From an uncultured Methanosarcinales archaeon (lineage in GTDB: Archaea; Nanobdellota; Nanobdellia; Woesearchaeales; GW2011-AR9), in assembly GCA_964344235.1 (NCBI GenBank), contig CAYFMJ010000001.1, positions 288,001-352,000 on the forward strand: a DNA stretch of 64,000 nt, written 5' to 3'. Both the position numbers and the translations under genes were made by a program. The notes beneath the pieces were generated by a model, which saw nothing but the letters and a program-made list of their open reading frames with translations, had not been told where the DNA came from and made no database searches. Below are positions 29,095 to 48,695 of this stretch, piece after piece (the stretch's first letter is position 1; every line of letters begins with the position of its first letter).

Positions 29095-30141
29095 ATGGAC
29101 TCAGAGATATATCAGCGGTTGACAAATGAGACGAAACCTTTTGTTCTGGCGGAAATTGGTTCAAATCACATGGCCAGTATGGAGACTGCTAAAGAGCTTA
29201 TTGATGCAGCGGTTGAAGCTGGCTGTGATGGTGTTAAGTTTCAATCACTTGGTTGGAATGATTGGAATTCGAAAACGGTTTTTCAAAAAAGACGTAACTA
29301 TACTGCTCCTGGCTTGCTAGTGGTTGGGCTAGAGGCCACTAATAAGTTACTTGAACTCTCAAAAGAGCAACATCACGAATTAAAAAGGTATTGTGATGAG
29401 AAAGGCATTCTTTTTTCTTCAACTCCCGCAACTAACGCCCAAATAGATATGCTTGTTGATGAGCTGAAAGTTCCATTCTTAAAAATTGCTTCAATGGATT
29501 TAACAAACCACGATTTCCTACGCTATGCTGCATCGAAGGGCGTTCCGATTGTTCTTTCAACGGGGATGGCACTACTTCATGAAATTGCCGAGGCTGTTGA
29601 AGTAATTAAGGGAACCGGTAATGATCAATTGATTCTTCTACATTGTGTGGCAACATATCCTACCCCTCACGATTGGGTTGATCTCCAAAACATCTCCATG
29701 TTAAAAGATACTTTTGGTTTTCCAATTGGCTTTTCAGATCACACTTTGACAGCGGATATCCCAATTGCATCAGTGGCGTTGGGTGCTTGTTTTATTGAGA
29801 AACATTTTATGTTAGAAGGGCAGGAGTGTCGTGAAAAGAAAGTATCCATTACTCCCTCACAAATGAAGCGATTGGTAGAAGGGGCACATAATGTTGGTAT
29901 GGCAATGGGAACGTATCATAGACGCTTAACTGAGCAGGAAGTAATACGAAGAGGATGGATGCGTCGAGGGATTTTGGTTCGAAAAGATTTACCTGCAGGA
30001 CATATTCTTACGAGGGAAGATTTAGTCTTTAAGAGACCAAGTGGTAAGATCCCCGCCAAGGATTGGAAGTATGTTGTTGGGAGAAAGCTTAAGGAGGCAA
30101 GGGAAGCAGATGATGTTCTTGGTTTAGAGGATTTTGAGTGA
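29095..30141 (+). CDS. neuB: Nonulosonic acid (N-acylneuraminate-type) synthase with SAF domain
   Basis: AEIGSNH, VKFQ, KIASMD, LSTGM, LHCVATYP, GFSDHT, IEKHF, FKRP. Confidence 0.92.
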   Translation: MDSEIYQRLTNETKPFVLAEIGSNHMASMETAKELIDAAVEAGCDGVKFQSLGWNDWNSKTVFQKRRNYTAPGLLVVGLEATNKLLELSKEQHHELKRYCDEKGILFSSTPATNAQIDMLVDELKVPFLKIASMDLTNHDFLRYAASKGVPIVLSTGMALLHEIAEAVEVIKGTGNDQLILLHCVATYPTPHDWVDLQNISMLKDTFGFPIGFSDHTLTADIPIASVALGACFIEKHFMLEGQECREKKVSITPSQMKRLVEGAHNVGMAMGTYHRRLTEQEVIRRGWMRRGILVRKDLPAGHILTREDLVFKRPSGKIPAKDWKYVVGRKLKEAREADDVLGLEDFE

Positions 30142-31414: not shown

Positions 31415-32488
31415 TTAGGGGCGAGTTGGTATTACTGGTTGCCCTGTTTTTGATCTGAAAATATCTGTATGCCCAACATAGTCTATCTTTCCTGTCTTTA
31501 TCATTTGGAAAGCAAGATCTTTGAATCTAGCACTCCACTCTCTACGAAATCCTTCTGCTCCATAGTAGTTCGCAGCAGAGCCTACGGTGTGAGCTACACG
31601 TAAAAGAAGTTCTAATTGCTGTGTTAGCGGACCTTCATGGTTGTACGTTCCTCCCTCACTTTGATGGCCCCTTCGTAACGCTTCTTGTCCAGCAATCAAT
31701 GTTTCATTGTCAAAATAGCTAGTGAACAGTGAATGGACGAGGTACATTTCTTGTTCCACCGGTCCTGCTTGACTCCATTCAACATCGGGAAAACTGGGAT
31801 TACCTGCACTGTCAACGAGAATATTTCTTGGATGTAAATCAGCTATTGTGAACACGGGGGTGATATGGCTTTCAACTTCTACTATACTCGCAAGGCTTCT
31901 CTCGAGAAAACGATTTACTTCTTCTACTTCCCTTTCAGTGTATGCTGGGGATTGTGTCAATCTGGCTAATCGATAAACAATAAATTGTTTTGCTCTTGCT
32001 GTGAACTGTGGGGGGCCTTGCACACCTTCGGGATTGATGTCACCAAATTTTTCGTATGTTTTGCGGTGGGCTTTTGCTAATTCCATCCCTAGTCTTTCTA
32101 AAGAGGCAAGAAAAACGCCTAATGAATAATCGTGTTCTCTCAAATATTGATCCCATGTCTTTCCAGTGAGTTTTTCTGCAACAAGGAATCGTTCATCGTC
32201 AACTTTGAAAGGACCTCTCATTTTTGGAGTACGAATCCCTAATTCATTCCTGAGAAAGTTACACAGATAGCCTTCTCTCTCTAGGGAAATTACTCCCCCG
32301 TAATGTGAATCTCTTTTCACCCTGTGCTTGTCTAATTTTGTAGCTCTTTCAAATCGTACGACAACTTCTTCACCGGAATCTAACGTTACCTCAAAGTTAT
32401 CATGAGATCGACCTTCAGAAATTGCGGTAATGGTGTCAACAGAATGTCCTGCTTGTTCAAGTAGTCTCTGAGCACGTTGTTGGTCCAT
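31415..32488 (-). CDS. APH-family phosphotransferase
   Basis: EGRSHDNF, VVVRF, IADLHPRNILVD, FPDVE. Confidence 0.72.
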   Translation of the reverse strand: MDQQRAQRLLEQAGHSVDTITAISEGRSHDNFEVTLDSGEEVVVRFERATKLDKHRVKRDSHYGGVISLEREGYLCNFLRNELGIRTPKMRGPFKVDDERFLVAEKLTGKTWDQYLREHDYSLGVFLASLERLGMELAKAHRKTYEKFGDINPEGVQGPPQFTARAKQFIVYRLARLTQSPAYTEREVEEVNRFLERSLASIVEVESHITPVFTIADLHPRNILVDSAGNPSFPDVEWSQAGPVEQEMYLVHSLFTSYFDNETLIAGQEALRRGHQSEGGTYNHEGPLTQQLELLLRVAHTVGSAANYYGAEGFRREWSARFKDLAFQMIKTGKIDYVGHTDIFRSKTGQPVIPTRP

Positions 32489-33180
32489 TATCCTCTTTTC
32501 CGCATTAAGAATTCTGTTATGTCAAAGTCGTGTTGTGTATCAATGTCGGTTGAATGCTCAACCGGCATAATATAAGGGTACGTTTTATCCGGGTACTCTC
32601 CACTTTCATCAAAAAGAACAGATGGTTTGAACACAAACATATTCCCATTGTGAAGGTACACTTTGTCGTTGTCTTGTCGGTTCCCGAAGACTCCCTTTCT
32701 GTTGCTCCTAGGTCTTATAGTTCCATCGTCTTGAATTATCTTAATTCTGTTAGGGTGGACATCAGTTTCACACACTCCTATGACAGCATTTGCATTGTTT
32801 TTGAGAAAAATCTCAATGGCATTGTCAATATCCTGGGCTGTCCGCAAGGGTGAAGTTGGCTGTAAAATAACAACAATGTCTGGGTTGTACCCTGTCTCTT
32901 TCTGTAATCGGTCAATTGTGTAACGGTAGGCATCTGTTGCATCTGCATCATCTGTTGCTAATTCAGCTGGCCGCATAAATGGAATTTCGATGTCATAATG
33001 AGAACAAACTTGAGAGATCTCATTACTGTCAGTTGATAAAACCAGTTTGTTGATAAACTTTGATTTATTCGCTGCTTCAATAGAATAGGCAACCAGCGGT
33101 TTGCCATTTAGGGGCTTAATGTTCTTTCCAGGAAGGCCTTTTGATCCTCCGCGAGCTGGAATAATTGCTAAAATATTCAT
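32488..33180 (-). CDS. neuA: Acylneuraminate cytidylyltransferase (CMP-nonulosonate synthetase)
   Basis: IIPARGGSKGLPGKN, LSTDS, LQPTSPLR, DIDTQHDF. Confidence 0.92.
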   Translation of the reverse strand: MNILAIIPARGGSKGLPGKNIKPLNGKPLVAYSIEAANKSKFINKLVLSTDSNEISQVCSHYDIEIPFMRPAELATDDADATDAYRYTIDRLQKETGYNPDIVVILQPTSPLRTAQDIDNAIEIFLKNNANAVIGVCETDVHPNRIKIIQDDGTIRPRSNRKGVFGNRQDNDKVYLHNGNMFVFKPSVLFDESGEYPDKTYPYIMPVEHSTDIDTQHDFDITEFLMRKRG

Positions 33181-33277: not shown

Positions 33278-35458
33278 ATGATTAAAAAGATGGATAAACC
33301 AGCAATCATAGGTGGAAGAAAAGAGTTTGAAGAGTTTTTACCGATAGTAAGACCTTCTTTACCAACACTCTCTCAGATAAGCGTTCAAGTAGAAGAAGTT
33401 CTGGCGAGCGGCATGGTGACGAATTTTTCGAAGTATACTCAACAGCTGGAACGTGAGTGTGGAAATTATCTAAACGTTAATTTTAGTCTTTCTCAACCAA
33501 ACGCCACCACTGGATTACTGTTACTCTGTAAAGTGTTAGGTCTTACGGGAGAAGTTATTGTACCAAGTTTTACTTTCTCAGCGACTGTTCATGCACTGAT
33601 TTGGAATGGCCTTACACCAGTTTTTGTTGATATTGACCCTGAAACGTTTAACATTGATCCAAAACTCGTGGAAGAAAAGATAACAGACAAGACCTCTGCC
33701 ATTTTAGGAGTACACATTTTTGGTAATCCCTGTGACGTTAAGGAATTAGAAGAAATAGCGAGGAAACATGATTTAAAATTACTCTTCGATGCTGCTCATG
33801 CCTTTGGTTCGGAGTATCAAGGAAAGAAAATCGGAGGCTGTGGTGATGCAGAAGTTTTTAGTATGAGCGGAACTAAATTATTAGTGACTGGAGAGGGAGG
33901 TTTAATTACCACTACAGATAAAGATTTGTCTGACAAGCTTAGGTTAGCAAGGAACTATGGGGATCCGGGAAATTATAATTGTGTTTTTGTTGGTTTTAAT
34001 GGAAAAATGTCTGAGTTTTCAGCGATTATTGGCTTGCAGTCTCTGAAAGATATTTCTGGTCAAGTTAGGAATAGAAATATTATTAGAAATATTTTCGAAC
34101 AAGAGTTACGAAGTGTTCCGGGAATTAGTTTTCAGAAGATAAGAGAAGGAAATATCACATCAGTGAAAGACTTTTCAATTATAGTTGATAAGAATGAATT
34201 TGGCATCAGTAGAGATCAATTGGCTAAGTGTTTAGCAGCGGAGAACATTCATTCCAAAAAATATTTTTATCCTCCAATTCATTTTATGGATGCTTATAGA
34301 GAGTTTCATGAACAGTATTATGGGAAACTACCACACACGGAAAAAGTCTCCTGGAACATTCTTTGTTTGCCGATCCATAGTACTATGTCGGAAGAGCAGG
34401 TAAAGAAGATATGCAATGCAATTAGGAGAATTCAGCATTTTCATCAAGAAATTGTTCAGGAAGCGGAAGATATTAGTTCAGTGTTGATAACAGGGGGCGC
34501 AGGGTATGTGGGAGTTGTCTTAGCAAGGCAGTTGTTAGAGCAAGGGTATAAAGTTAAAATTCTGGACCAGCTTATTTTTGGTAAAGAGCCTTTACAAGAG
34601 ATTGAAGGACATCCAAACTTTAGCTTGGAAGTTGGTGTGGTTGAGGATAAATATGTGGTAGAAAAGAGTTTAGAGGGGATTGATGCAGTTATTCATTTGT
34701 CTGGTTTATCCAATGATCCTTCTTGTGAGTTAAACTCTGATTTGACGAAGAAATCAAATATAGATGCAACGAAAGTTCTTTTACAGTTTGCAAAAGCAAA
34801 AGGCGTAAAGAGATTTATCAATGCTTCTTCATGTAGTGTGTATGGTTTTACAAATGGTGTTTTGGTGGATGAACAAAGTCCGCCAAACCCTCTGACTGCT
34901 TATGCAAAATCGAAAGTAAAAAGTGAGGAGTTAGTTCTCGCTGAGTCAGAGGAAGATTTTGTGACAGTTTGTTTACGAAAATCAACGATTTATGGCCCTT
35001 CACCAAGAATGAGGTTTGATCTTGTTATTAACACAATGACGGGAATGGGAATGAGTGAGGGCAAGATTGTTATCAATGGTGGTGAACAATGGCGCCCTTT
35101 CTTGCATGTTGAAGATGCAGCGAGTGCGTATCTGTTTATGTTACAAGCACCTAAAGAACAAATCAATGGGCAAGTGTTCAACGTAGGGAGTAACTACCAA
35201 AACATTAAAATTATAGATTTGGCGCATAGAATTGCTGCTGTTCTTCCTGGCGTAAAGGTTGAGCAGAGTCACTCTCCCGATAAAAGGAGTTATTTAGTTA
35301 GTTTTGATAAAATCAGTGCACTTGGCTGGAAAGCTACATTTGATATCGAAGATGGAGTTCATGGTGTGAAAAAACTATTTGATGAAGGAAAAGTGAAGAA
35401 TTTTCGCGATTTAAATTATTTTAACATAAAGAGAATGATTTCCTATTTGAATGTTTAG
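33278..35458 (+). CDS. Fusion protein: DegT-family aminotransferase plus NAD-dependent epimerase/dehydratase
   Basis: N-terminal DAAHAFG, MSGTKLLVTGEGG, GFNGKMSE; C-terminal ITGGAGYVG, ASSCSVYG, YAKSK; one 726 aa ORF. Confidence 0.88.
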   Translation: MIKKMDKPAIIGGRKEFEEFLPIVRPSLPTLSQISVQVEEVLASGMVTNFSKYTQQLERECGNYLNVNFSLSQPNATTGLLLLCKVLGLTGEVIVPSFTFSATVHALIWNGLTPVFVDIDPETFNIDPKLVEEKITDKTSAILGVHIFGNPCDVKELEEIARKHDLKLLFDAAHAFGSEYQGKKIGGCGDAEVFSMSGTKLLVTGEGGLITTTDKDLSDKLRLARNYGDPGNYNCVFVGFNGKMSEFSAIIGLQSLKDISGQVRNRNIIRNIFEQELRSVPGISFQKIREGNITSVKDFSIIVDKNEFGISRDQLAKCLAAENIHSKKYFYPPIHFMDAYREFHEQYYGKLPHTEKVSWNILCLPIHSTMSEEQVKKICNAIRRIQHFHQEIVQEAEDISSVLITGGAGYVGVVLARQLLEQGYKVKILDQLIFGKEPLQEIEGHPNFSLEVGVVEDKYVVEKSLEGIDAVIHLSGLSNDPSCELNSDLTKKSNIDATKVLLQFAKAKGVKRFINASSCSVYGFTNGVLVDEQSPPNPLTAYAKSKVKSEELVLAESEEDFVTVCLRKSTIYGPSPRMRFDLVINTMTGMGMSEGKIVINGGEQWRPFLHVEDAASAYLFMLQAPKEQINGQVFNVGSNYQNIKIIDLAHRIAAVLPGVKVEQSHSPDKRSYLVSFDKISALGWKATFDIEDGVHGVKKLFDEGKVKNFRDLNYFNIKRMISYLNV

Positions 35459-36223: not shown

Positions 36224-37150
36224 ATGACAAAAACAATGAGAGACCAACTTCGTGCTGATGGTGAATTGGCGTTGGCAGGCCTTGTTCATCCAGAGATTAT
36301 TCGTGGTGACCCTGCGTCTTGTACAGCAGAATTTAGCAAATTAATTGTTAATCTTTGCCTCCGTGTGGAAGATGATGATTATGTACGACGTATTACAGAA
36401 GACGATGTTGATCGAGTGATGCTTCATGCAGATTCCCAGATTGGAAGACCAGAAGCCCACCGTTCTCACATTATCACAACAGGGTATTTGTTCCAAAGTC
36501 TCACAGCAGCTCTTCTTGATACACATCCAGACTTAGATTTACCCCATCCGGATATTGCGCGTGCTATGGGTTGGCTACACGATCTTAATATGATGTTTAG
36601 TAGTTATCAACGAGGAGGTCAATTGTCGAAGGAATTAGATTTGTTTTTCTTAGGTGCTATGAATGGCTGGACACGGATAGCAGATCATATGGCGATGCAT
36701 AGTGCTTATTTTGAGATTGGACAGCTTCTTACTGGGGAGTATCAATTTCCAGAAAAAAATGAAGCGTATGAAGGTATGCGGGAAGTTCTAAGGGGAGGGG
36801 GCCCATTATCACTTACTGCTATCACAGAGCGGTTTAGAGGATATCATCGAGGTACTGATAACATGCCGCTACTCGCCTTAACAGTGGTTGATTATATGGA
36901 ACGTGGTTTAAGAACCTTTGATCCTACGAAGATAGAAGCGGACTTTGCTGCACGATCGGAGGATGTTCTTTGGCGCTACCATGGGAAACATGTAGAAGCA
37001 GAAATGGCGCCACCGCCTCTTGGCGTTGCGTTAATGTCGGGGGGATTAACGAGAATAAAAGGGTACAAAGACATAGTTAGAAAACTTCTTTCTGATGATA
37101 TTGAAGCAATTGATAGGTTACGAGAAACAACTCATCTGTTTAAGAAATGA
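36224..37150 (+). CDS. Hypothetical HD-domain-like protein
   Basis: HRSH...GWLHDL...VVDY; own TATA-like box near 36182-36190. Confidence 0.55.
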   Translation: MTKTMRDQLRADGELALAGLVHPEIIRGDPASCTAEFSKLIVNLCLRVEDDDYVRRITEDDVDRVMLHADSQIGRPEAHRSHIITTGYLFQSLTAALLDTHPDLDLPHPDIARAMGWLHDLNMMFSSYQRGGQLSKELDLFFLGAMNGWTRIADHMAMHSAYFEIGQLLTGEYQFPEKNEAYEGMREVLRGGGPLSLTAITERFRGYHRGTDNMPLLALTVVDYMERGLRTFDPTKIEADFAARSEDVLWRYHGKHVEAEMAPPPLGVALMSGGLTRIKGYKDIVRKLLSDDIEAIDRLRETTHLFKK

Positions 37151-37255
37151 TCTTCTGTTCAATAGAATTCCTGAATTTTTGTTACTTTTAAACAATAATC
37201 CATAAACTTAATAAAGAAATTTGGTGCTTTTGATTGAGTCAAGGTGGAATGATAT

Positions 37256-38557
37256 ATGAAAAAAGTATATGTCGCAATGAGTGCAGACTTCTTACACGAA
37301 GGTCATATGAACATCCTAGACGAAGCTCGGAAATTAGGAGAAGTAACAATAGGATTATTGACAGATGAGGCTGTAGCTACATATAAAAGAATGCCCCTTT
37401 TGAGTTATGAACAACGGAAGAGAATTTTTCGAAATATTGTTGGCGTTTGTGATGTTATACCACAGCATACTTTAGATTATGAAGAAAATATTCGTCAGTT
37501 GAAGCCAGACTTTGTTGTTCATAGTGATGATTGGAAAACGGGAATACAGAAGCCGATCCGGGAAAAGGTAGTTGCCACTTTACAAGAATGGGGAGGAATA
37601 CTGATTGAACCAAGATATACTGAAGGGATTTCCTCTTCGAAAATGGTTGGTCAAATTCGGGAGAGGGGCACTACTCCTGATGTACGAAGAAATATGCTGC
37701 GTCGATTGTTAGCAGCAAAACCATTAGTAAGAGTTCTAGAAGCTCATAATGGTCTCACTGGGTTGATTGTTGAAAAAACAAAAATACAGAATCACTTAGG
37801 ACATATTAAAGATTTTGACGGAATGTGGTTAAGCAGTTTGACGCATTCTACCTCTAAGGGAAAACCAGATATTCAATACGTTGATATTACATCCACTGGT
37901 CAGACCATTAGTGAAATTTTTGAAGTTTCTACCAAACCACTAATTGTTGATGCGGATAATGGTGGGCTTATCGAACATTTTCGTTTTACTGTGAGAACGC
38001 TGGAAAGGCTTGGTGTATCTGCAGTTATTATTGAAGATAAAGTGGGAGCAAAACGGAACTCGTTATTTGGAACTGATGTTAAGCAGACACAAGATAGTAT
38101 TAAAGGCTTTTCAGAAAAGATTTCGGAGGGTAAGAAATCTCTAGTTTCTGATGATTTTATGATTATTGCTAGGATTGAAAGTTTCATTTTGAAGAAGGGT
38201 CTGGAGGACGCTCTAACCCGGGCAAGAGCGTACATAGAAGCAGGAGCAGATGCTATTATGATTCATAGTAAAGAGAATTCACCGTCGGAGATTCTTTCTT
38301 TCTGTGAAGAGTATAAAAGGTTTAGCACGAGAGTTCCATTGGTTGCTGTCCCATCTTCGTATAGTGAGATTACTGAGGAGCAATTAATAGAAGCAGGGGT
38401 GAATGTTGTGATCTATGCAAATCACTTACTAAGAAGTGCGTATCCAGCAATGGTTAGGGCGGCGGAGTCTATATTACAACATGGGCGCTGTCATGAAGCG
38501 AGCAAGAACTGTATGGAAATTAAAGAAATTCTCAAATTGATACCTAATGGAGAGTAG
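37256..38557 (+). CDS. pepM: Cytidylyltransferase-phosphoenolpyruvate mutase fusion (AepX/Fom1 architecture)
   Basis: N-terminal MSADFLHEGH, HSDDW, YTEGISS; C-terminal EAHNGLTG, MWLSSL, VDADNGG, IIEDKVGAKRNSL (PepM EDKxxxKxNS signature), ARIES, YANHLLRS. Confidence 0.93.
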   Translation: MKKVYVAMSADFLHEGHMNILDEARKLGEVTIGLLTDEAVATYKRMPLLSYEQRKRIFRNIVGVCDVIPQHTLDYEENIRQLKPDFVVHSDDWKTGIQKPIREKVVATLQEWGGILIEPRYTEGISSSKMVGQIRERGTTPDVRRNMLRRLLAAKPLVRVLEAHNGLTGLIVEKTKIQNHLGHIKDFDGMWLSSLTHSTSKGKPDIQYVDITSTGQTISEIFEVSTKPLIVDADNGGLIEHFRFTVRTLERLGVSAVIIEDKVGAKRNSLFGTDVKQTQDSIKGFSEKISEGKKSLVSDDFMIIARIESFILKKGLEDALTRARAYIEAGADAIMIHSKENSPSEILSFCEEYKRFSTRVPLVAVPSSYSEITEEQLIEAGVNVVIYANHLLRSAYPAMVRAAESILQHGRCHEASKNCMEIKEILKLIPNGE

Positions 38558-38585
38558 AGTACCAATATAGTGGACTAATTTAGAG

Positions 38586-38604
38586 TTCAAAGGTGGCCTT
38601 TGAA
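38586..38604 (+). terminator. Possible hairpin between pepM and the Fe-ADH gene
   Basis: TTCAAAGG-TGG-CCTTTGAA, a perfect 8-bp inverted repeat; function unproven. Confidence 0.3.
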
Positions 38605-38624
38605 ACAATCACTTTTACATATGA

Positions 38625-38632
38625 TTTATAAA
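38625..38632 (+). promoter_or_regulatory. Archaeal TATA-like box upstream of the Fe-ADH gene
   Basis: TTTATAAA ending 22 nt before ATG 38655. Confidence 0.45.
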
Positions 38633-38654
38633 GAGGAATACGTGTCGAACCATT

Positions 38655-39794
38655 ATGCAACAAGAATATTTTGGTATGGGAAGTATTACGTTTTTGAAGG
38701 AAATATTAGAGCGAGAAAACCCGAGTAAAATATTTTTAGTGCGGGGGAAACAGGCGTATGTTTCTTCAGGTGTGCAAAAAAAATTGGAACCCTTTCTTTT
38801 TGATTATGAGGTGGTTCACTTCTCAGATTTCTCTGTGAACCCAAGAATTGAAGATGTGGAGAAAGGAATAGAACTTTATAAAAAAGAAAAGTGCGATTTT
38901 GTCATTGCTGTTGGCGGAGGAAGTGTTATTGATATGGCGAAGTCAATAAACGTACTTTCTGTGCAACCAGAGGAACCTCCAAAATATATCCTTAAGGAGT
39001 TGCCAATAGAGATGAAAGGAAACCCATTAATTGCTATTCCTACAACATCAGGGACTGGAACTGAAGCAACTCAGTTTGCTGTTGTATATATTGGCAAAAA
39101 GAAATATTCACTCGCCCATAAAGAAATCCTTCTACCAAGTTATGTGATTCTGGATCCATCATTAACCTCTTCTCTGCCGGCTAAGGTGACAGCTTCAACA
39201 GCCATGGATGCATTGGCTCAAGCTATTGAAGCACACTGGTCAGTTCATTCTACCAGAGAATCAAAGATATTTTCGCGAGGCGCTATTTCACTTATTTTAG
39301 ATAATGTTCACGCTGCTGTTAATAGTCCAACAGAAGAAGCGAGAATAGCGATGATGAAAGGTTCAAATTTAGCGGGAAAAGCCATAAATATCGCCAAAAC
39401 AACAGCATGCCATGCTGTTTCTTACCCAATCACCTCTTACTTTAATATTCCACATGGCCATGCAGTTGCGTTGACTTTGGGCGAGATGTTTGTATTCAAT
39501 GCACAAATAGTAGAAGACCAATGCTCTGACAAAAGGGGAGTGGGTTATGTTAAAGATACAATGTATGAACTGATTCAACTTTTCAAAGTGGAAACTGCTC
39601 AAGAAGTTCGTATTAGAATAGAACAATTAATGGATTCTATACAACTGGAACGGAATTTGTCAAAGTTACATATTACAACAGAAGATCACTTTAATCTCAT
39701 CATTCAAAATGGATTTAATCCGGAAAGGGTTAAAAATAATCCTCGGCTCTTAACAGAACAGAATTTAAGAAGCATGTTAACACGCATAAAGTAA
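38655..39794 (+). CDS. Iron-containing alcohol dehydrogenase, phosphonoacetaldehyde reductase/HEP dehydrogenase-like
   Basis: GGGSVIDMAK, PTTSGTGTEAT, DALAQAIEAHWS, TTACHAVSYPIT, PHGHAVA; adjacent to pepM. Confidence 0.85.
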   Translation: MQQEYFGMGSITFLKEILERENPSKIFLVRGKQAYVSSGVQKKLEPFLFDYEVVHFSDFSVNPRIEDVEKGIELYKKEKCDFVIAVGGGSVIDMAKSINVLSVQPEEPPKYILKELPIEMKGNPLIAIPTTSGTGTEATQFAVVYIGKKKYSLAHKEILLPSYVILDPSLTSSLPAKVTASTAMDALAQAIEAHWSVHSTRESKIFSRGAISLILDNVHAAVNSPTEEARIAMMKGSNLAGKAINIAKTTACHAVSYPITSYFNIPHGHAVALTLGEMFVFNAQIVEDQCSDKRGVGYVKDTMYELIQLFKVETAQEVRIRIEQLMDSIQLERNLSKLHITTEDHFNLIIQNGFNPERVKNNPRLLTEQNLRSMLTRIK

Positions 39795-39855
39795 TATCGA
39801 GTTGTCCATAAGATTATTCCATAAGTCTTAAGAAGGAGATTTTGACCATGCGAGT

Positions 39856-41343
39856 ATGGTTAATTATGGTTCAAAGCTTCTAAAAGGGGCCGGTATTATT
39901 TTCTTTATGAGTTTACTGAGTGCTGGTTTGGGGTATGGAATACGAATTATTCTTGCTAAGAATTTAAGTACTGCAGATTTTGGCCTTTTTTTTGCTGTTT
40001 ATAACATAGTGTTGATGCTTGGTTGGATGAAAGGGTTTAGTTTTACGTCTGTTGTTCAAAAGTTTATACCTGGGTTTAAAGCTAAAGGAGATTATACGAA
40101 AATAAAATCAATGTTTATATTTGTCCTTATCTTTACTTCATTAACGAGCTTACTGCTTGTCATCTTAATTTACTTATTCCCGGAACACCTTATTAACAGC
40201 TACTTTAAGAGTAATGTAGCAAAGTCATTGCTTTGGATAATTACTCTTTTTTATATTATTGATGACTTCTCAAAGCTTGTTGCGGGATACTTCCTTTCTG
40301 TACATTTGCCGTTTCTTTACTCCCTGCGGGATTTATTAGTCCGATTATCCCTTTTTCTGCTTTTGTTTGTTGTTACTATTAATACTTTTTCTGTGGCCTG
40401 GCTCTATGTTGTAGCAGCAGCACTCGCACTTGTTGTTAATCTGTTACTTTTTATACGATATTTTCCTTTTCAGTATAAAACTTCAATCACAAAAGATCTA
40501 GTGCGGAAATTATTTAGCTTTAGCACTCCTCTTATTATACGGGATTTTTTTGGCGTCTTTTTGAGTAGGGTGGACAACCTTTTTCTTGTCTATTTCAGGC
40601 CTTTGACAGAAGTTGCTATCTATAACACTATTTTGCCAACGGCAGAGCTCTTATTGTTTATTTCTCGACCTTTTGCAAAGGTCTTGTTTCCCCTGTCCTC
40701 AGAATTGTGGTTTATGCAAGATAAAAGAAGGCTGAGGAGTCTTCTAGGTATAACCCACAAATATTTGCTGTTACTTTTAATTCCACTCGCACTCTTTGTT
40801 GGTTATCTATCAACTTTTATTTTAAGTCAATTTTTTGGCTCAGTGTATGTAGAAGGATCTTTTGGATTAAGGATATTAATTGTTGGAATCCTATTTTCTA
40901 GCTTGAATCTTGTGGGTTATGCTGTTCTAAAAGGCATCGGAAAGACCAAAGAAGTGGCAGTAATTCATATATTTATAAATAGTCTTAATGTTATTCTTAA
41001 TATAATCTTAATACCCTTATTTGGATCATTGAATCAAGGTTATTTTGGGGCTATAATTGCAACAACATGCAGTTTCTTTGTTGCCTTTTTACTTTTGACA
41101 TACTTCTTACATAAATTTTTGCACTATAGACTTTCTCTAGCTATCCTTTTATTTATCGTTACAAGTGGTTTTGCTTCTTTGCTTATTATGCATGTCATTG
41201 TAACACCGATTTCATCTTTGTATGTGCAATTAGCTGTTTTTATTGTTGGTTTCTCCCTGCTGTATCTCGTATTTATCTTTGTGTTGAAAATCACTTCAAA
41301 GCAAGAGATTGTTACTTTATTGAAGATGTTGAGGTCATCTTAG
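39856..41343 (+). CDS. Wzx-type oligosaccharide flippase
   Basis: AKNLSTADFGLF, RVDNLFL, VAIYN; 12-14 TM helices. Confidence 0.85.
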   Translation: MVNYGSKLLKGAGIIFFMSLLSAGLGYGIRIILAKNLSTADFGLFFAVYNIVLMLGWMKGFSFTSVVQKFIPGFKAKGDYTKIKSMFIFVLIFTSLTSLLLVILIYLFPEHLINSYFKSNVAKSLLWIITLFYIIDDFSKLVAGYFLSVHLPFLYSLRDLLVRLSLFLLLFVVTINTFSVAWLYVVAAALALVVNLLLFIRYFPFQYKTSITKDLVRKLFSFSTPLIIRDFFGVFLSRVDNLFLVYFRPLTEVAIYNTILPTAELLLFISRPFAKVLFPLSSELWFMQDKRRLRSLLGITHKYLLLLLIPLALFVGYLSTFILSQFFGSVYVEGSFGLRILIVGILFSSLNLVGYAVLKGIGKTKEVAVIHIFINSLNVILNIILIPLFGSLNQGYFGAIIATTCSFFVAFLLLTYFLHKFLHYRLSLAILLFIVTSGFASLLIMHVIVTPISSLYVQLAVFIVGFSLLYLVFIFVLKITSKQEIVTLLKMLRSS

Positions 41344-41383
41344 TTTCTTAATATTTATAAATAGCTGACATTTTTTTTGGAGG

Positions 41384-42799
41384 ATGAAAAAGAACACATT
41401 AAATGGTCGAAAGTTTGTTTTTTTCTCTGGGTCGTCGGGGCGTGACAAGATGATGATAAAAATAGCGAAACAGCTTGCTTCACGAAATGGTGTGAAAACT
41501 CACTTCCTGACGTTTACACCTGGCCAAACAGTTGATTATTTTGTTTCAGAGGGAATTAAGAGCGATTGTGTTACATCTGTTCTTCACCTCCCTAATCCTG
41601 CTGTGAAGCCAGACATGGCTTTCTTGAAGTCTAAGGAGATAGAATATGGGGTTCAGTTCTTTGACATCTGGCAAATTGCTGCGGCTAGAAGCAAAAAACG
41701 CCATAACATAAAGTCCACTAAGGTGCTGGCCCAAATGGAATTCTTTGTTCGAGAGCTTGAACACTTTATTAAAAAGGTTAAGCCCGATTATCTTGTTGTT
41801 TCTGGGGTTTCATCGTATGTTACCCTCCTTGCATACAAAATTTTTATGAAGAAGGGACTTCCTGTATTAGAGATAACAAACCCACGTATTCCTAATCGGT
41901 TTGCAATTGATGATAAACTGAAATCCGAGTGGCCCTTGCTTGTGAAGAAATACGAAGAAATAAAAAACACCTCTTTGAAGCCGCGGCAGAGGAAAGAAGC
42001 GCTGGACTTCATGCAGTCTTTCTATGTGAAACCTTTAAAGTCAGATAACCAGACTACAGAGAACCAGGACTTCTCACAAAGATTTGCGAGATACTTTAGA
42101 CACATAAAAACATTGTATTATAGACGCCGCCTTCCAGCATTAAGGGTTTTTTGGACTCCTATTAAAGATTTTTTCTTAAAGAATTCTTCACGGTTTGAAC
42201 TTCCAGTAGATGGAGAAAAATTTGTCTTTCACCCTTTACAAATCCAACCAGAGGTTTCTACTCTCCTTAAGGGCAAGTGGTATGTTAATCAAGTAGCCTT
42301 GATTGAAAATATCGCCAAAAGCCTTCCTTGCGATTACAAGCTTTATGTTAAAGAACATGTTAAAAATTATTCCCAGCGCCCCCCAAACTTTCATCGTGAT
42401 ATTAAGCGATTCCCTAATGTTCGTTTGATTGCCCCTTCCGCTGACACTATTTGGTTAGCCAAAAAATGTTCGCTGGTTACGACGATTACTGGAACGATTG
42501 GTTGGGAAGCAATCTTGTTACGCAAGCCGGTTTTAACGTTTGGACAGGTCTTTTATAACCAGTTTGAAGAAGTCGTGTCTGTTGTGGATATTAAACAGCT
42601 TCCCAACATTATAAAAAGCAAACTTGATACTGTTGTTGATCTTGAGAAAACACTGCAATTTGTTAGTGCAGTACAACAGTCAACGTTTCCGGGAATAAGA
42701 GCTCTTCCAACTGACTGTCGAGATCGCTCATTAAAAGATGAGAATATCTTAGCGCTCACTCAAGGGTTAGAACAATATATTTATGCAATGAACCTTTGA
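41384..42799 (+). CDS. KpsS/capsule-synthesis-family protein (ulosonic acid transferase-like)
   Basis: FHPLQIQPEVST, YVKEH, TITGTIGWEA, PVLTFG. Confidence 0.7.
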   Translation: MKKNTLNGRKFVFFSGSSGRDKMMIKIAKQLASRNGVKTHFLTFTPGQTVDYFVSEGIKSDCVTSVLHLPNPAVKPDMAFLKSKEIEYGVQFFDIWQIAAARSKKRHNIKSTKVLAQMEFFVRELEHFIKKVKPDYLVVSGVSSYVTLLAYKIFMKKGLPVLEITNPRIPNRFAIDDKLKSEWPLLVKKYEEIKNTSLKPRQRKEALDFMQSFYVKPLKSDNQTTENQDFSQRFARYFRHIKTLYYRRRLPALRVFWTPIKDFFLKNSSRFELPVDGEKFVFHPLQIQPEVSTLLKGKWYVNQVALIENIAKSLPCDYKLYVKEHVKNYSQRPPNFHRDIKRFPNVRLIAPSADTIWLAKKCSLVTTITGTIGWEAILLRKPVLTFGQVFYNQFEEVVSVVDIKQLPNIIKSKLDTVVDLEKTLQFVSAVQQSTFPGIRALPTDCRDRSLKDENILALTQGLEQYIYAMNL

Positions 42800-42837
42800 T
42801 AGTGATTTGTATCGCTCTGTAGTTCTGTTGGTGATTT

Positions 42838-44544
42838 CTAGTCTTTGCCAAGTGTTTGGCGTAAATAACTTTTTGTTTCAATCAACAGCTTCTTTGGGTC
42901 TTTTAAGTAATGGGTCTTTTTAGCGTAGATTAAAGAGAGACCTTTGAGAAACCAGCCAGGAGGTTTTTTTATGAACGTTAGATTATAGTCTAAATAGGTA
43001 GTTGTTGTTGATGTAAGCTTACTTGCGATCTTCATGAGATCTCTCCTCCCTGCACCAAAAGGGTTATCTAAGGGAATCATTGTGAGATCATACGGTTTAT
43101 TGCAAAGTTGAGAACAGTTTTTCATGAAATCATCAAAATGGATGGTGGTGAAGTGGATGTCCACTTGGTCCGTAGATCGGCCAACATCTTGATGTTCAAA
43201 CGCCCATTTTTTGGAGAAGGAACTCTCTCGAACGTTAACGTTATAGTGCGTTATCTTTCCTTTTGGCTCAAACCCCCCGTATGTGGTTTTATAGTTGTTC
43301 ATTATCTTCTTATTAATCACCACATCTAACTCATAGTGTGAAAAAGTAGCATCGAGTGCTTTGATTACCATGGAAATAAAAGTGCTATTCGCAGAGCCTA
43401 ATAACAATATTCGCTTAATATTTTGAATTTTCTTTATTGAGAAATGCTTCGCAATTTCTCGCTGAAACTTATTTGTTAGGTATGTTGTGTGGTATGTAAC
43501 GAGGTCCTTTTCCTGCTGCTGCAATTCTTTTCGGAAAAAATCCAGTTCTACGGCATGCTCTGGCGAGGCAATGAGGTTGGTTTGCTCGTCGGGATCACGA
43601 GAAAGATCATAGAATTCTTCACTCTGCTCGTCAAATCGAAAAATATATTTATACTTCTCTGTCTGCAAGGCTGTAGCCCGTTCTTTCTGGAAAATATATC
43701 GTATGTCGCTGCGGAATAGTTTTTTTGTATAAGGAGCATCATGTTCAATAAGTGGCAGTAAACTCATCCCTCGAAATCCAAATTCACTGTGAGGAATATT
43801 TACAATATCTAGAATAGTTGGTGTTATGTCAAGGGGACTCACTAGGGTTTTTATTCTCTTTCTCGGACAAGAAGGATATTTCAAAAAAAGGTGTTGTAAA
43901 ATATTTGAATTGGTAAGAATAAGGTCATGGCGCTTCATGATTTTTTTTCGCTCATTGTCATTCCAACCATGGTCTGGGCAGAATAAAAAAAGACAATCAT
44001 CATACAACCCTTCTTTCTTTAACCTCTCAATCAGAAGTCGTACGTATTTTGCAGTATTCTCTTGGTTGTTGTAGTTTAGAAGGAGAAAGAACGGTTCTTG
44101 TAGCTTTCTTTCTAACAGGTGATCCAACAGTTTGTTGATGTCCTGGCTTTTCCAATTATCATCATTTCTGATTCCATCGGGCAGCTCCTTTTGGTCTAGT
44201 GAAAGAACCGCTTGTTTTAATCTCTTCCGAACTTCAGCGGAGTGTGTTGTTGCATATACTGTGTAACCATTTTTTTTAAGAATTCTACTAATGGAAGGAA
44301 AGTAATCATGGTCAAAGCTAAAATCCGCGTTAGTTCTACTGAGATGGATACCAGGCTGGCTAGTCATTAACGAGCTTTGTGACATCAAAGTGCTTGCAGT
44401 TGTGTCTACGACGTTTTCAAAGTACACTCCCTCTGAAGAGATTTCATCAATAATTTTATATTTCCCAAAACGATCCTTTCCAGGATAGTTGCGTATTGCT
44501 TCTCCAAGAATCCAGATTACATTTAGCTTTTTTTTAGAAGACAT
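42838..44544 (-). CDS. Alkaline-phosphatase-superfamily (sulfatase-like) protein with an extra C-terminal domain
   Basis: WILGEAIR, TASTLMSQSSLMTS, PDHG, DITPTILD, YDLSRDPDE. Confidence 0.72.
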   Translation of the reverse strand: MSSKKKLNVIWILGEAIRNYPGKDRFGKYKIIDEISSEGVYFENVVDTTASTLMSQSSLMTSQPGIHLSRTNADFSFDHDYFPSISRILKKNGYTVYATTHSAEVRKRLKQAVLSLDQKELPDGIRNDDNWKSQDINKLLDHLLERKLQEPFFLLLNYNNQENTAKYVRLLIERLKKEGLYDDCLFLFCPDHGWNDNERKKIMKRHDLILTNSNILQHLFLKYPSCPRKRIKTLVSPLDITPTILDIVNIPHSEFGFRGMSLLPLIEHDAPYTKKLFRSDIRYIFQKERATALQTEKYKYIFRFDEQSEEFYDLSRDPDEQTNLIASPEHAVELDFFRKELQQQEKDLVTYHTTYLTNKFQREIAKHFSIKKIQNIKRILLLGSANSTFISMVIKALDATFSHYELDVVINKKIMNNYKTTYGGFEPKGKITHYNVNVRESSFSKKWAFEHQDVGRSTDQVDIHFTTIHFDDFMKNCSQLCNKPYDLTMIPLDNPFGAGRRDLMKIASKLTSTTTTYLDYNLTFIKKPPGWFLKGLSLIYAKKTHYLKDPKKLLIETKSYLRQTLGKD

Positions 44545-44612
44545 GTTTACCTTATCTTTTCATTTTTCTGTTTTGCTTGCGTTTATAAGTTTTATTAAGT
44601 TACATACCAGTG

Positions 44613-46094
44613 TTACTGTTGCTTTTTCAGCGACTCACTTGTACTATACTCTTTTCCTCCATCTTCTTTCACACCATACTTTTTCAGAAGGTAATTATAG
44701 AGGAAATAAATAGTGGCGTCTTGGTCCTCGATCGGAAAGCTTGAAATGACCATTCCCTGTAATCGATGATTACCACATCGTTCTGCATGCCTCTGTGTTG
44801 GGGTGAAGATTTCCTTTGTTTTTAGTAGTGAAGAAGGCCAAAAGCGAAAATCGGTGTCATAGAATAGTAAGTCCGGTGCTTGGTCTAAGTGTTTACCTCT
44901 GTATACTTCCTCTTTTTTCTTTACTTCATGTTTGAAGCACCATCCCTGTTCGCGCTGTAACACTTCATATACTTTGTTCCTTACTCTCTCAAAATCTTCC
45001 TTAGCAACACTTCCTGCTTTGAAATCACTTGTATTGATATAAACGCCATTTTCCATTGCAAAAGCAACAGTATTCTCCCAGTCAATGAGTTTTTTGTTAA
45101 CAGCATCGTTCCATTGCAACGCACCCACTTCGGAGGGAATCAGTCTTGATACATTAGTGCCTTTCAGCAACGCATATGCTAACTTTTTGATTTTGAATTT
45201 CATGAGTAAGGTATCAATTTTGTTGGAATCTAACTTTAGTGTGCTTAAGACAGAAGAGATAAACGTGCTATTTTTTTTCAACTTGAGAAAGTCATTTCTC
45301 ACTAACCATTCGTTAAGGTGGAATTTCCCATGCAACGCACCACCGCCGTGGTCGCTTAAGATGATGATTTCGCCATCATGGCCTGTGACGAGTTTTCCAA
45401 CTTCATGATCGACGAGTTCATAATAGTCATAAAATGCTTTTTCATATTCTTCATTCTCTTCATAGATTGGGCTATCGTGGTAGACATACCTGGCCATAAG
45501 GTGTTGTACGGCGTCAGTGCCGTTTTCAACAACAACAACAACGTCTGGTTTTAGTTCTTTGAGTAACTTTTTCACAACTTTAAAACGAACTTCTGTTGCG
45601 CTTCTGATTTGCTGTATTAACTCATTCATGCTATTCCAGTTGTAGGTAAGTTGGTACTTAGGTAATTCCTCTTTAATCATCTCACGAATCTCTTTTGGGT
45701 AGATGAAGGAATCACTGTCCATGGAAGGTGTGTATACACCCGTTAGAATAAAGCCGTTAAAAGGGCGCGCAGGATATGTTCCTGGAACGTTTATAATTCC
45801 GCAACGGGCATCTACTTTCTCCCAAAAAGGAACAAAATTGTAATGTTTAACAGGGACTTTCGCGTAATCTTTTACTGTATGACAACCAAATAAACCAATC
45901 TCTCCTGGATTACTGCCGCTGACAATGCAAGACCACGCAGGAACAGAATTCGGTGGAATGACGCTTTTTACTTCTTTCAAAGAACCTGCTTTTATTATTT
46001 TTTCAATGTTAGGAATTTTCTTTTTTTTAATAAGTGCTTCAATTAAATTTTTACTTACTCCATCTAATCCAATGACAATTGTCTGTTTATTCAT
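44613..46094 (-). CDS. Nucleotide pyrophosphatase/phosphodiesterase-family protein
   Basis: IGLDG, SVIPPNSVPAW, DAVQH, LSDHG, APDL, GNH. Confidence 0.8.
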   Translation of the reverse strand: MNKQTIVIGLDGVSKNLIEALIKKKKIPNIEKIIKAGSLKEVKSVIPPNSVPAWSCIVSGSNPGEIGLFGCHTVKDYAKVPVKHYNFVPFWEKVDARCGIINVPGTYPARPFNGFILTGVYTPSMDSDSFIYPKEIREMIKEELPKYQLTYNWNSMNELIQQIRSATEVRFKVVKKLLKELKPDVVVVVENGTDAVQHLMARYVYHDSPIYEENEEYEKAFYDYYELVDHEVGKLVTGHDGEIIILSDHGGGALHGKFHLNEWLVRNDFLKLKKNSTFISSVLSTLKLDSNKIDTLLMKFKIKKLAYALLKGTNVSRLIPSEVGALQWNDAVNKKLIDWENTVAFAMENGVYINTSDFKAGSVAKEDFERVRNKVYEVLQREQGWCFKHEVKKKEEVYRGKHLDQAPDLLFYDTDFRFWPSSLLKTKEIFTPTQRHAERCGNHRLQGMVISSFPIEDQDATIYFLYNYLLKKYGVKEDGGKEYSTSESLKKQQ

Positions 46095-46207
46095 CTCTGC
46101 CGGGCTTTGAATTTTGTTTATAAAGATTATGAATAAAGAATGAAAAAAAGAAAGATTTATATACGAAATGTCTCAGAAATAATAAATTAGTAAAACGAGA
46201 GGTATCA

Positions 46208-47917
46208 ATGGTTGAAAGTCAAAATGAGGAAATGTTAGGGACAGTGAAAACTTCTGGTTCGACGCCGAGCGGTGATAGTAGCCCTACAGTTCCTACAGTA
46301 AATGTTGCAGTGAACGCCCCTACAATTGATGGTGGCGTTCAAACACCCATTGCTCCTGCGGCGTCAAACGGAACTTCATTTGCAAATAATAGTGCTTCTG
46401 CAACAACTGAGAATGAAAAATTTAGAGTGCTCTTAATCCACGCAAATTCTTCTATGGATACCTTAATTCCACCCAACTTGGCAACTCTATCTGCTTATTT
46501 GAAACAAGCGGGGAATGAAGTGAAACTATTTGATACAACGTTTTACAATACCCGTGGATTTACCGGTGATGATTCTCGAGTTAGAACCCTGCAGGTCAAA
46601 GAAACTAAGTTTGCTGATTTAGGAATTCACTTTGAGACGACGGATATGGTGGAAGATTTCATAAAAATAGTTGAGGAATACCAACCTAATCTTGTTGGAT
46701 TATCTGCCGTTGAGTTGACATTCCAAATGGGGATGAATTTGATCAACGCTATGAAAGAGATCAGACCAGATATCCCGGTTATTGTAGGAGGCTCACATGC
46801 TATTACATCGCCTGAGGCAGTTGCTGCGGAGAAAAATGTTGATCTTATTTCAATCGGAGAAGCTGAAAAATCCTTTGTAGAGTTATGCACTAAATTACAG
46901 AACGGCGAAGATTATACTCAAATTCTGAACATGTGGGTTAAAAAGGATGGCCAAATTTACAAAAATAAGTTGGGAAATCTGATTGCAATGGATGATCTTC
47001 CTCGCCAAGATTGGGAAATTTTTGATAAACGAAGAATCTACAAACCAATGTCGGGGACTATTGGCAGAACTGGTTGTTTTGAGCTTACGCGCGGCTGTGT
47101 TTTCTCTTGCACTTTTTGTATCAATGAATTCTTAAATAAGACGCACAAACATCGAAGTTATCGAGAGAAAAGTATCCCTAAATTTATCGAGGAAGTGCAA
47201 TATTTCAAAGAGAAATATGGGATTGAATATGTTTATATTCTCGCAGAGATGTTTCTTCCAACTTCTAAAGAGAGAGTACGAGAGTTTTCCCGCCTGTGGA
47301 AAGAGAAGGTTGGTCTTCCATTTTGGTGTCAGGTAAGGGTTGAGGGCGTTGATGAGGAAAATGCTAGACTGCTTGAAGAAGCGGGTTGTGTATCAATCTC
47401 GGCTGGTATTGAGAGCGGTAATGAAGAATTTAGAAGAAATGTTATTCATAGAATGATGAGTAATGAAAAAATAATTGAAGCGTTTAGAATTCTCAAGAGC
47501 ACAAAAATGCAAATTTCGGGCAATAGCATCATTGGGTTCCCTGGAGAAACTCGCGAACAAATATTTGATACTATTGAGCTTAATAGAAAATTAGATTTGG
47601 ATAATATTATGATTCATGTCTTTAATCCTTATCGAGGTACAACTTTGTATGATGTTAGCGTTGAAAGAGGGTACATTACTCCCAACCACATGGCGGGTGA
47701 TTACAGGGCAGATTTTACATTAAACATGCCACACATTACAAAGGAAGAAATCCTTGGACTACAAAGAACTTTTAACATGTACGTCAAATTTCCAAGAGAA
47801 ATGTGGCCCGAAATAAAAATTGCGGAAAGGATGGATGAAGAAGGGAACAAGAAATTTGCAGAACTGAGTAAAAAGTTTAAAGAAGAATTCTTTGCAAAAC
47901 CATTAATGATGCATTAA
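46208..47917 (+). CDS. Cobalamin-binding radical SAM protein (class B methyltransferase-like)
   Basis: PPNLATLSAYL, VGGSHA, TRGCVFSCTFC, GIESG, IIGFPGET. Confidence 0.88.
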   Translation: MVESQNEEMLGTVKTSGSTPSGDSSPTVPTVNVAVNAPTIDGGVQTPIAPAASNGTSFANNSASATTENEKFRVLLIHANSSMDTLIPPNLATLSAYLKQAGNEVKLFDTTFYNTRGFTGDDSRVRTLQVKETKFADLGIHFETTDMVEDFIKIVEEYQPNLVGLSAVELTFQMGMNLINAMKEIRPDIPVIVGGSHAITSPEAVAAEKNVDLISIGEAEKSFVELCTKLQNGEDYTQILNMWVKKDGQIYKNKLGNLIAMDDLPRQDWEIFDKRRIYKPMSGTIGRTGCFELTRGCVFSCTFCINEFLNKTHKHRSYREKSIPKFIEEVQYFKEKYGIEYVYILAEMFLPTSKERVREFSRLWKEKVGLPFWCQVRVEGVDEENARLLEEAGCVSISAGIESGNEEFRRNVIHRMMSNEKIIEAFRILKSTKMQISGNSIIGFPGETREQIFDTIELNRKLDLDNIMIHVFNPYRGTTLYDVSVERGYITPNHMAGDYRADFTLNMPHITKEEILGLQRTFNMYVKFPREMWPEIKIAERMDEEGNKKFAELSKKFKEEFFAKPLMMH

Positions 47918-48567: not shown

Positions 48568-48695
48568 GGAAGCTACTTTCTTTATAAATATTCTGAATAT
48601 CTTGGTTGGAGGCGTGTTCCGACAGTGGCCTTAATATCTTCCTTCACTAATCGAAGCCCTACAATAGATCATGAGAACTTAGTTACGCCGGGTCA

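Follow-up and report, generated by a model that had tools for sequence, protein, structure and literature searches.

The 64-kb stretch of DNA analysed here (the window) comes from the genome of a DPANN-type archaeon (1.19 Mb in 37 contigs, 96% complete) and probably encodes a pathway for decorating the cell surface with phosphonates, of the known Fom1/Fom2/FomC type. A sequence-only reading of the window had singled out positions 37256 to 39794, placing there a phosphoenolpyruvate (PEP) mutase fused to a cytidylyltransferase (CT-PepM) and an iron-dependent alcohol dehydrogenase (Fe-ADH), with a flippase and a KpsS-like gene behind them; all four genes are confirmed at those places (Table 1), the last two by matches to PF01943/MatE and PF05159, and the functional phosphonate module is wider, spanning approximately 36224 to 49676. 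Coordinates are positions in the window, L and G numbers denote related loci and genomes, and P numbers denote database proteins; neighbourhood counts refer to 83 CT-PepM loci related to the window copy, with neighbours counted within 10 kb.

Sequence comparison identifies the central protein as a true PepM fused to a cytidylyltransferase, with predicted mutase activity. Both halves are recognised by domain models (PF01467, 51.2 bits versus a gathering score of 21; PF13714, 185 bits), and the protein scores 391.1 bits versus a cut-off of 319.55 with the equivalog model of PEP mutase (TIGR02320, EC 5.4.2.9); the sister families score low (phosphonopyruvate hydrolase TIGR02321, 138.4 versus 374.4; methylisocitrate lyase PrpB, 104.6 versus 354.4). 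The EDK signature is intact, as first read, in the form E260-D261-K262-V-G-A-K266-R-N268-S269. Residues D205, D232, D234, E260, K266, N268, S269, R306 and H337 do not vary among 18 homologues, and D205, D232, D234, R306 and H337 align to Mytilus PepM (1m1b), the Mg-binding and catalytic residues of which we take to be D58, D85, D87, E114, K120, N122, S123, R159 and H190. The curated scores and the motif rule out, as far as sequence can, the other identities that the sequence-only reading had raised, those of a phosphonopyruvate hydrolase or an isocitrate-lyase-family enzyme. The cytidylyltransferase domain contains an HxGH nucleotidyltransferase motif (H14-E-G16-H17) that is invariant in the alignment, and its best match in the PDB (aa 4-136; 174.5 bits, E 2.9e-50) is 5x3d, a 160-residue entry titled PEP phosphomutase that is presumably the cytidylyltransferase (CyTase) domain of Fom1. 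The Fom1 CyTase domain makes the cytidine monophosphate (CMP) conjugate of 2-hydroxyethylphosphonate (HEP) (Rice et al., PMC6697681). HEP is likewise the predicted substrate here, on the basis of the Fe-ADH partner and of the names given by JGI to CT-PepM homologues of 67-72% identity (PEP phosphomutase / 2-HEP cytidylyltransferase).

Pfam scans of the window open reading frames (ORFs) detect no phosphonopyruvate decarboxylase (Ppd) or other thiamine diphosphate-dependent enzyme within the 64 kb. The only Ppd of the genome is encoded on contig C3 among unrelated small ORFs (DUF1428, DUF1801); because it shares 63-66% identity with the Ppds encoded within the clusters of the nearest relatives, L019 and L020, it is read as the cognate enzyme, relocated. 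Owing to its presence, the route from PEP through phosphonopyruvate, phosphonoacetaldehyde and HEP to CMP-HEP is predicted to be fully encoded, and a coupling step that dispenses with Ppd (reduction to phosphonolactate, transamination or an aldol reaction) is unnecessary. The Fe-ADH, predicted to be the phosphonoacetaldehyde reductase, stands after CT-PepM as the sequence-only reading had it (PF00465, 139 bits; ADH_Fe_C, PF25137, 111 bits), and the family keeps this company elsewhere: a homologue lies near CT-PepM in 57 of the 83 loci and Ppd in 78, and the gene order is PepM-Ppd-ADH in 49. It shares 53% identity with the ADH in the L006 cluster, and relatives at 55-58% identity carry the NCBI name phosphonoacetaldehyde reductase; it scores below TIGR03405, the curated equivalog of the phosphonate Fe-ADH PsrA (168 bits versus 423.7), and is not a member of it. 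Natural fusions in the phosphonoacetaldehyde-reductase family join Fe-ADH to a CDP-alcohol phosphotransferase, or a cytidylyltransferase to Fe-ADH (P0338, P0385); in other organisms they can help to predict the transfer step. Homology and conserved gene context show, at the level of predicted function, the steps from PEP to CMP-HEP.

The proposed pathway would proceed in seven steps: conversion of PEP to phosphonopyruvate by the PepM domain; conversion of phosphonopyruvate to phosphonoacetaldehyde by the unlinked Ppd, which would pull the unfavourable mutase equilibrium forward; reduction to HEP by the Fe-ADH; activation to CMP-HEP by the fused cytidylyltransferase domain; addition of a methyl group, probably by a B12-binding radical S-adenosylmethionine enzyme (rSAM), to give a C3 (hydroxypropyl-type) phosphonate; esterification of the activated phosphonate, on the cytoplasmic side, to a lipid-linked glycan, for which two alkaline-phosphatase-superfamily proteins are candidates; and export by the adjacent flippase to surface glycoconjugates, possibly through the sole AglB of the genome. 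The parts of the pathway that we infer are methylation, transfer, the acceptor and the connection to AglB.

The linked rSAM, a class-B type enzyme with the motif C297-x3-C301-x2-C304, probably methylates the two-carbon phosphonate. The strongest evidence, suggesting that its family is part of cell-surface phosphonate pathways, is fusion to Ppd: natural Ppd::rSAM fusions form two clusters (P0211 and P0213, 53% identity), their Ppd half is 50% identical to the host Ppd, and the order around the fusion is CT-PepM, an unknown gene, the fusion, Fe-ADH and an NPP-like gene. Orthologues of the rSAM adjoin pepM or Ppd in L093 (with a start 42 bp after pepM), L052, L100 (between Ppd and Fe-ADH), L101 (between Ppd and the aminoethylphosphonate (AEP) transaminase, AEPT) and G077, in which an 80%-identical orthologue lies, on a 12.4-kb contig, immediately next to Fe-ADH-Ppd-CT-PepM-NTP-transferase; L099 is also among the phosphonate contexts linked to this family. 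Among the sampled genomes of the host's order, strong orthologues occur in three of eight pepM-positive genomes versus one of 143 pepM-negative genomes, and that one is only 86% complete. Fom3 methylates C2 of CMP-HEP (PMC8158854), and the rSAM may do the same; alternatively, its substrate may be phosphonoacetaldehyde rather than the CMP conjugate, since its family is present in ADH-type and AEPT-type clusters alike and is sometimes fused to Ppd. The inventories of Rice et al. (PMC6697681) and of Li and Horsman (PMC8942020) discuss no B12-rSAM partner; the only radical-SAM genes that one of them mentions are those flanking ppm-ppd in Campylobacter.

It is also conceivable, and in our judgement rather unlikely, that the pathway stops at CMP-HEP, leaving unmodified HEP on the glycan, and that the rSAM serves another reaction of the island, such as C-methylation of a sugar. 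B12-rSAMs are common in the island, which contains a second, unrelated one; the rSAM is separated from Fe-ADH by 6.4 kb and belongs to a separate transcription unit; and a true orthologue is present in only three of the 83 loci. Such an unconnected role would leave unaccounted for the Ppd::rSAM fusions, the insertion of rSAM genes between Ppd and Fe-ADH or AEPT, the orthologue that abuts the core genes in G077, and the skew of the phylogenetic profile towards pepM-positive genomes.

Several features of the rSAM and its surroundings were recorded on their own account. The enzyme has an N-terminal extension of approximately 70 residues, rich in Ser, Thr, Pro and Ala, that is absent from all of its homologues of approximately 500 residues; the ORF has no internal Met before residue 83, and the extension is either a disordered leader or a sign that the true start is a non-ATG codon. 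A gene for a 4Fe-4S ferredoxin fused to PterinBD-DUF4346 runs convergently to the rSAM gene, the stop codon of which it overlaps by 4 nt; it was rejected as a partner of the rSAM on account of this orientation and of the lack of any homologue near pepM in the 83 loci. The second B12-binding rSAM, which shares approximately 23-28% identity with relatives of the pepM-linked enzyme, lies directly downstream of AglB beside a SAM methyltransferase, and the phosphonate clusters of L100, L101 and G077 each have two or three different B12-rSAMs. The rSAM-containing clusters of L099 and L100 also encode a conserved 260-residue protein with no Pfam match between CT-PepM and Ppd (L099 7222-8004, L100 6065-6847) and, in L100, a 76-residue ORF before CT-PepM (4416-4646); no counterpart of either is found in the window.

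Directly upstream of CT-PepM is a gene of a rare, unnamed family, with 36 representative clusters among 1.84 billion proteins. The 308-residue product has no match in Pfam (the Pfam HD family included) or NCBIfam, and Foldseek finds no match for its model in the PDB at E <= 0.001. Invariant residues (H82, H119-D120, H159 and D223), a confident AF2 model (pLDDT 97) and the top 50 rows of a VIA-align comparison of that model, nearly all of them HD-superfamily phosphohydrolases (Z 8.4-4.4), point to a divergent HD phosphohydrolase; a profile search aligns the H..HD motif to SAMHD1 weakly (E 0.05). Members of the family are immediate neighbours of CT-PepM in L004 and of Ppd in L014 and L019; in L015 the family member sits on a short contig that lacks phosphonate genes, and in the order-level sample the family is confined to the host genome. 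FomD-like hydrolysis of a CMP-phosphonate is a role that we suggest with low confidence. In L004 (11464-14052), the closest CT-PepM relative among the matches listed (72% identity), a PhnD-type phosphonate ABC transporter follows the HD-fold gene and CT-PepM, and there is no Ppd or ADH within 10 kb of the pair; a Fe-ADH homologue (P0376) is on record from a contig of identical length (780,040 bp).

The CMP-phosphonate might instead feed a phosphonolipid head group through a CDP-alcohol phosphotransferase of the genome, and not a glycan. The fusion of Fe-ADH to such an enzyme (P0338), the occurrence of genes of this family (CDP-OH_P_transf) alongside pepM in the L004 and L101 clusters, and the five that the host possesses would suit this proposal, which we nevertheless consider improbable: none of the five is in the window, the nearest two adjoin a chaperonin gene and a phosphoesterase gene, and the module is flanked by flippase, glycosyltransferase and sugar-nucleotide genes. 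That the product is a free small molecule, either a fosfomycin-like precursor (free 2-hydroxypropylphosphonate released by a FomD-like HD-fold hydrolase) or a storage or signal compound, is very improbable. In its favour, the gene set includes counterparts of Fom1, Fom2 and FomC along with a class-B rSAM, CT-PepM has an HD-fold hydrolase-like protein as its immediate neighbour, and L004 pairs the same two genes with a transporter. Against it, Pfam scans of the window ORFs show no domain of cupin or epoxidase type, the module lies within a glycan island with a flippase at its side, and most CT- or NTP-transferase-linked Ppm clusters have been assigned to cell-surface tailoring (PMC6697681).

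For decoration of a surface glycan, the genes downstream of Fe-ADH offer candidates. Homologues of the flippase (27-31% identity) are found near CT-PepM in L006, L026 and L028. The two alkaline-phosphatase-superfamily proteins are no more than candidates: the sulfatase-like protein has S-T-L-M-S at the position of the C/S-x-P-x-R formylglycine motif, which is thus absent, and its weak homologues are encoded immediately upstream of CT-PepM in L006, L099 and L100; the NPP-like protein bears a faint resemblance to phosphonoacetate hydrolase and has full-length homologues (26% identity) located after Fe-ADH in L099 and L100 (E 6e-42 and 7e-45). A second activating enzyme, the LicC/PntC-type nucleotidyltransferase, has homologues (31-49% identity) in ten of the 83 loci, usually just after Fe-ADH, and in G077 its gene is directly beside CT-PepM. 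The KpsS-like protein matches PF05159 (41.1 bits versus a cut-off of 20) over profile positions 76-267 of 310 only, and KpsC structures match it weakly, over approximately 77 residues (E 1.4e-4).

The sequence-only reading placed these genes in an archaeal N-glycosylation locus, and the gene content of the window agrees: on sequence evidence it is an AglB-dependent N-glycosylation island, with the genome's sole AglB (WWDYG motif at residue 646 of the open frame), an AglH-like glycosyltransferase and Alg13/14-like genes, together with two flippases (Polysacc_synt), two PMT_2 GT-C proteins, NeuB and a CMP-sugar synthetase, and many glycosyltransferases and sugar-modifying enzymes. The phosphonate may be attached to the glycan that AglB transfers; a literature search for AglB and phosphonate returned only synthetic substrate analogues.

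Several observations weigh against the proposed pathway or parts of it. The organism is uncultured, and the pathway is predicted from its genes. Ppd is not linked to pepM and is on a separate contig. With no LicD match in the genome and no CDP-alcohol phosphotransferase in the window, the transfer step is left without a recognised enzyme; the KpsS-like gene, having a homologue in none of the 83 loci, was rejected as a member of the phosphonate module, and the case for the NPP-like protein as a phosphonate-specific transferase is weakened because its homologues in the order-level sample are all in pepM-negative genomes. The rSAM falls below the curated models of phosphonate rSAMs (PhpK-family TIGR04479, 100.8 bits versus 600; NF038361, 88 versus 575), and its best PDB matches are AprD4 and TokK; likened to Fom3 by domain type and gene linkage, without direct comparison with the Fom3 sequence, it is not demonstrably a Fom3 orthologue. 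Since AglB is 35.6 kb from pepM, what joins phosphonate to N-glycan is co-location. The survey for pepM near aglB that had been suggested at the outset finds aglB, aglH or alg13/14 within 10 kb of pepM in none of 86 other loci, a test of low power because AglB is 35.6 kb away even in the host genome.

Table 1. Features of the phosphonate module and the surrounding glycan island (window positions except for Ppd)
Feature	Coordinates	Strand	Evidence and remarks
Putative HD-fold protein of a rare unnamed family	36224-37150	+	308 aa; directly upstream of CT-PepM
CT-PepM fusion	37256-38557	+	433 aa; PF01467 CTP_transf_like aa 11-130, PF13714 PEP_mutase aa 148-407
Cytidylyltransferase domain, Fom1-CyTase-like	37256-37663	+	PF01467; predicted 2-HEP + cytidine triphosphate (CTP) -> CMP-2-HEP
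PEP mutase domain	37697-38548	+	PEP <-> phosphonopyruvate; EDK-x5-NS motif at nt 38033-38062
Fe-ADH, predicted phosphonoacetaldehyde reductase (phosphonoacetaldehyde -> 2-HEP)	38655-39794	+	379 aa; PF00465, PF25137
Ppd	G000:C3:25880-26953	-	TIGR03297, 482.7 bits versus cut-off 312.5; sole Ppd of genome
Wzx/MATE-like polysaccharide flippase	39856-41343	+	PF01943 (Polysacc_synt) 78 bits, MatE 35 bits
KpsS/KpsC-like GT-B-type transferase	41384-42799	+	PF05159 Capsule_synth; doubtful tie to phosphonate module
Sulfatase-fold alkaline-phosphatase-superfamily protein	42838-44544	-	PF00884, PF16347; candidate phosphonyl transferase or esterase
NPP/phosphodiesterase-type alkaline-phosphatase-superfamily protein	44613-46094	-	PF01663 95.5 bits; candidate only
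B12-binding rSAM, class-B type, predicted phosphonate methylase	46208-47917	+	PF02310 59 bits, PF04055 77.5 bits
N-terminal extension of rSAM	46208-46417	+	
4Fe-4S ferredoxin fused to PterinBD-DUF4346	47914-48567	-	
LicC/PntC-type (MobA-like) nucleotidyltransferase	48912-49676	+	PF12804, PF00483; second activating enzyme recurring in module
AglB/STT3 oligosaccharyltransferase, C-terminal part	3-1643	+	PF02516 71 bits, single match of genome; frame starts upstream of window
SAM methyltransferase	1659-2366	-	
Second B12-binding rSAM	2386-4098	-	
Alg13-like / Alg14-like glycosyltransferase pair	5756-6283 / 6264-6788	-	PF04101 59.5 bits / PF08660 101 bits
FemAB/GNAT proteins (three)	9487-10542, 10572-11621, 55909-56961	+	Acetyltransf_6
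APH-type kinase-like proteins (two), in nonulosonic-acid set	27978-29009, 31415-32488		
NeuB, nonulosonic-acid set	29095-30141		
CTP_transf_3, nonulosonic-acid set	32488-33180		
DegT aminotransferase::epimerase/dehydratase, nonulosonic-acid set	33278-35458		
Glutamine-dependent asparagine-synthase-like protein	57699-59570	-	
AglH/Alg7/WecA-type initiating sugar-1-phosphate transferase	60522-61520	-	PF00953 120 bits

Other genes of the island hint at further sugar chemistry. Just upstream of the phosphonate module is a set for synthesis and CMP-activation of a nonulosonic acid (legionaminic/pseudaminic-type), and NeuB and the CMP-sugar synthetase recur near CT-PepM in seven or eight other loci. 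Bacterial FemAB enzymes use aminoacyl-tRNA to add amino acids to cell-wall precursors, and by analogy the three FemAB/GNAT proteins suggest amino-acid-decorated sugars in the island. The asparagine-synthase-like protein, which may amidate a sugar acid, is encoded next to a GT2 and the AglH-like glycosyltransferase, an arrangement with a like in L006. An Rfam scan of the window found no RNA family.

A close chemical parallel is the early fosfomycin pathway of Streptomyces (Fom1 CyTase-PepM, Fom2 Ppd, FomC Fe-ADH, Fom3 B12 rSAM; PMC8158854, PMC6697681), which shares the bifunctional CT-PepM, the Ppd and Fe-ADH steps to CMP-2-HEP and a genetically tied cobalamin-type radical-SAM enzyme. Unlike that antibiotic cluster, the genes described here lie in a glycan island with a flippase, Ppd is unlinked, and FomD (DUF402) and the Fom4 epoxidase were not seen in scans of the window, which involved no comparison with FomD or HppE sequences. 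Bacterial Pnt and HEP-type phosphonoglycan clusters (PMC6697681, PMC8942020), of which the HEP-exopolysaccharide of Stackebrandtia nassauensis is a HEP-type example cited there, likewise have a nucleotidyltransferase fused to Ppm and a glycan-synthesis neighbourhood; they differ from the present locus in its DPANN host, its AglB-centred island, its lack of LicD or a CDP-alcohol transferase, and its extra B12-rSAM and HD-fold families, which those inventories do not discuss.

Among archaea, the methylphosphonate cluster of Nitrosopumilus maritimus, as portrayed in PMC9381506 and PMC8942020, has the same PepM-Ppd-ADH route to HEP and nucleotidyltransferase, glycosyltransferase and arylsulfatase-like neighbours, and its product is thought, in those accounts, to be esterified to exopolysaccharide. 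In contrast, the PepM of the window is fused to a CyTase, no MpnS-type enzyme turned up in the host (no search was aimed at MpnS), and the tailoring candidate is an anaerobe-compatible radical-SAM enzyme rather than an O2-dependent oxygenase. A Methanoperedens Borg (10.1101/2024.11.05.622173) also carries a PepM-cytidylyltransferase fusion within an N-glycan gene block of an archaeal element, but the reported domain order and cytidylyltransferase type are different, the pathway is AEP-type with an AEP transaminase fusion, and the element is extrachromosomal, whereas the present locus is on a DPANN chromosome.

A protein search with CT-PepM gives at least 8000 matches, and among those listed are proteins of 65-73% identity from Patescibacteria, Woesearchaeota/Nanoarchaeota, Marinimicrobia and Spirochaetes. 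The cassette occurs at at least 593 loci in species-representative genomes, the archaeal carriers including Woesearchaeota, Nanoarchaeota, Methanosarcinales, Thermoplasmatales, Methanosphaera and the cultured Lokiarchaeum ossiferum. PepM is patchy within the order of the host (eight of 151 sampled genomes) and absent from the one other sampled genome of its family. In a quick tree the window CT-PepM groups with three DPANN sequences (99% SH-aLRT) and other archaeal CT-PepMs are scattered among bacterial copies, a pattern that suggests repeated transfer between the domains. PF01467 fusions account for 23.6% of non-redundant Ppm proteins (Rice et al. 2019, PMC6697681), and HEP-type neighbourhoods for 8.5% of the total, with 12 archaeal neighbourhoods listed (Li and Horsman 2022, PMC8942020).

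Of the sequence-only reading, the chemistry as far as CMP-HEP and the setting in a glycan island thus hold; its claim to novelty, which set Nitrosopumilus apart as the well-known archaeal case, was overstated, since in sequence data the cassette is found in many archaea and in at least 593 species-level genomes overall, and a fusion of PepM to a cytidylyltransferase within a cluster of N-glycan genes had been noted before in the Borg preprint (10.1101/2024.11.05.622173). With so common and well catalogued a cassette, the locus adds little to the basic picture. What sets it apart is the unlinked Ppd, the linked B12 rSAM family, the rare HD-fold family and the lack of a recognised transferase.

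A broader proposal, which we put forward tentatively and regard as possible rather than probable, is that DPANN archaea and various uncultured bacteria C-methylate a two-carbon phosphonate by means of this cobalamin rSAM family, sometimes fused to Ppd, to place a C3 phosphonate on surface glycans, and that the HD-fold enzyme acts on the CMP-phosphonate. If true, fosfomycin-type chemistry would be reused for envelope decoration, with a C3 (hydroxypropyl-type) head group not described on any glycoconjugate, and the pathway would be a possible biological source of C3 phosphonates. Work on marine dissolved organic matter reportedly indicates that C3 phosphonates release propylene on degradation by carbon-phosphorus (C-P) lyase; a literature search for hydroxypropylphosphonate or propylene in dissolved organic matter found nothing usable.

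Much of the dissolved organic phosphorus in the sea is in the form of phosphonates, which also sustain the aerobic production of methane. Only a handful of their producers and products are chemically confirmed, and just two families of HEP-type clusters have isolated products (Li and Horsman, PMC8942020). The locus points to investment by ultrasmall DPANN archaea in C-P surface chemistry inside an N-glycosylation island, by a pathway with an unlinked Ppd, and raises the enzymological question of how a CMP-phosphonate is transferred to a glycan by neither LicD nor a CDP-alcohol transferase. If the rSAM methylates the phosphonate, natural surface phosphonates would range beyond AEP, HEP and methylphosphonate, and the rSAM family would be a convenient marker gene.

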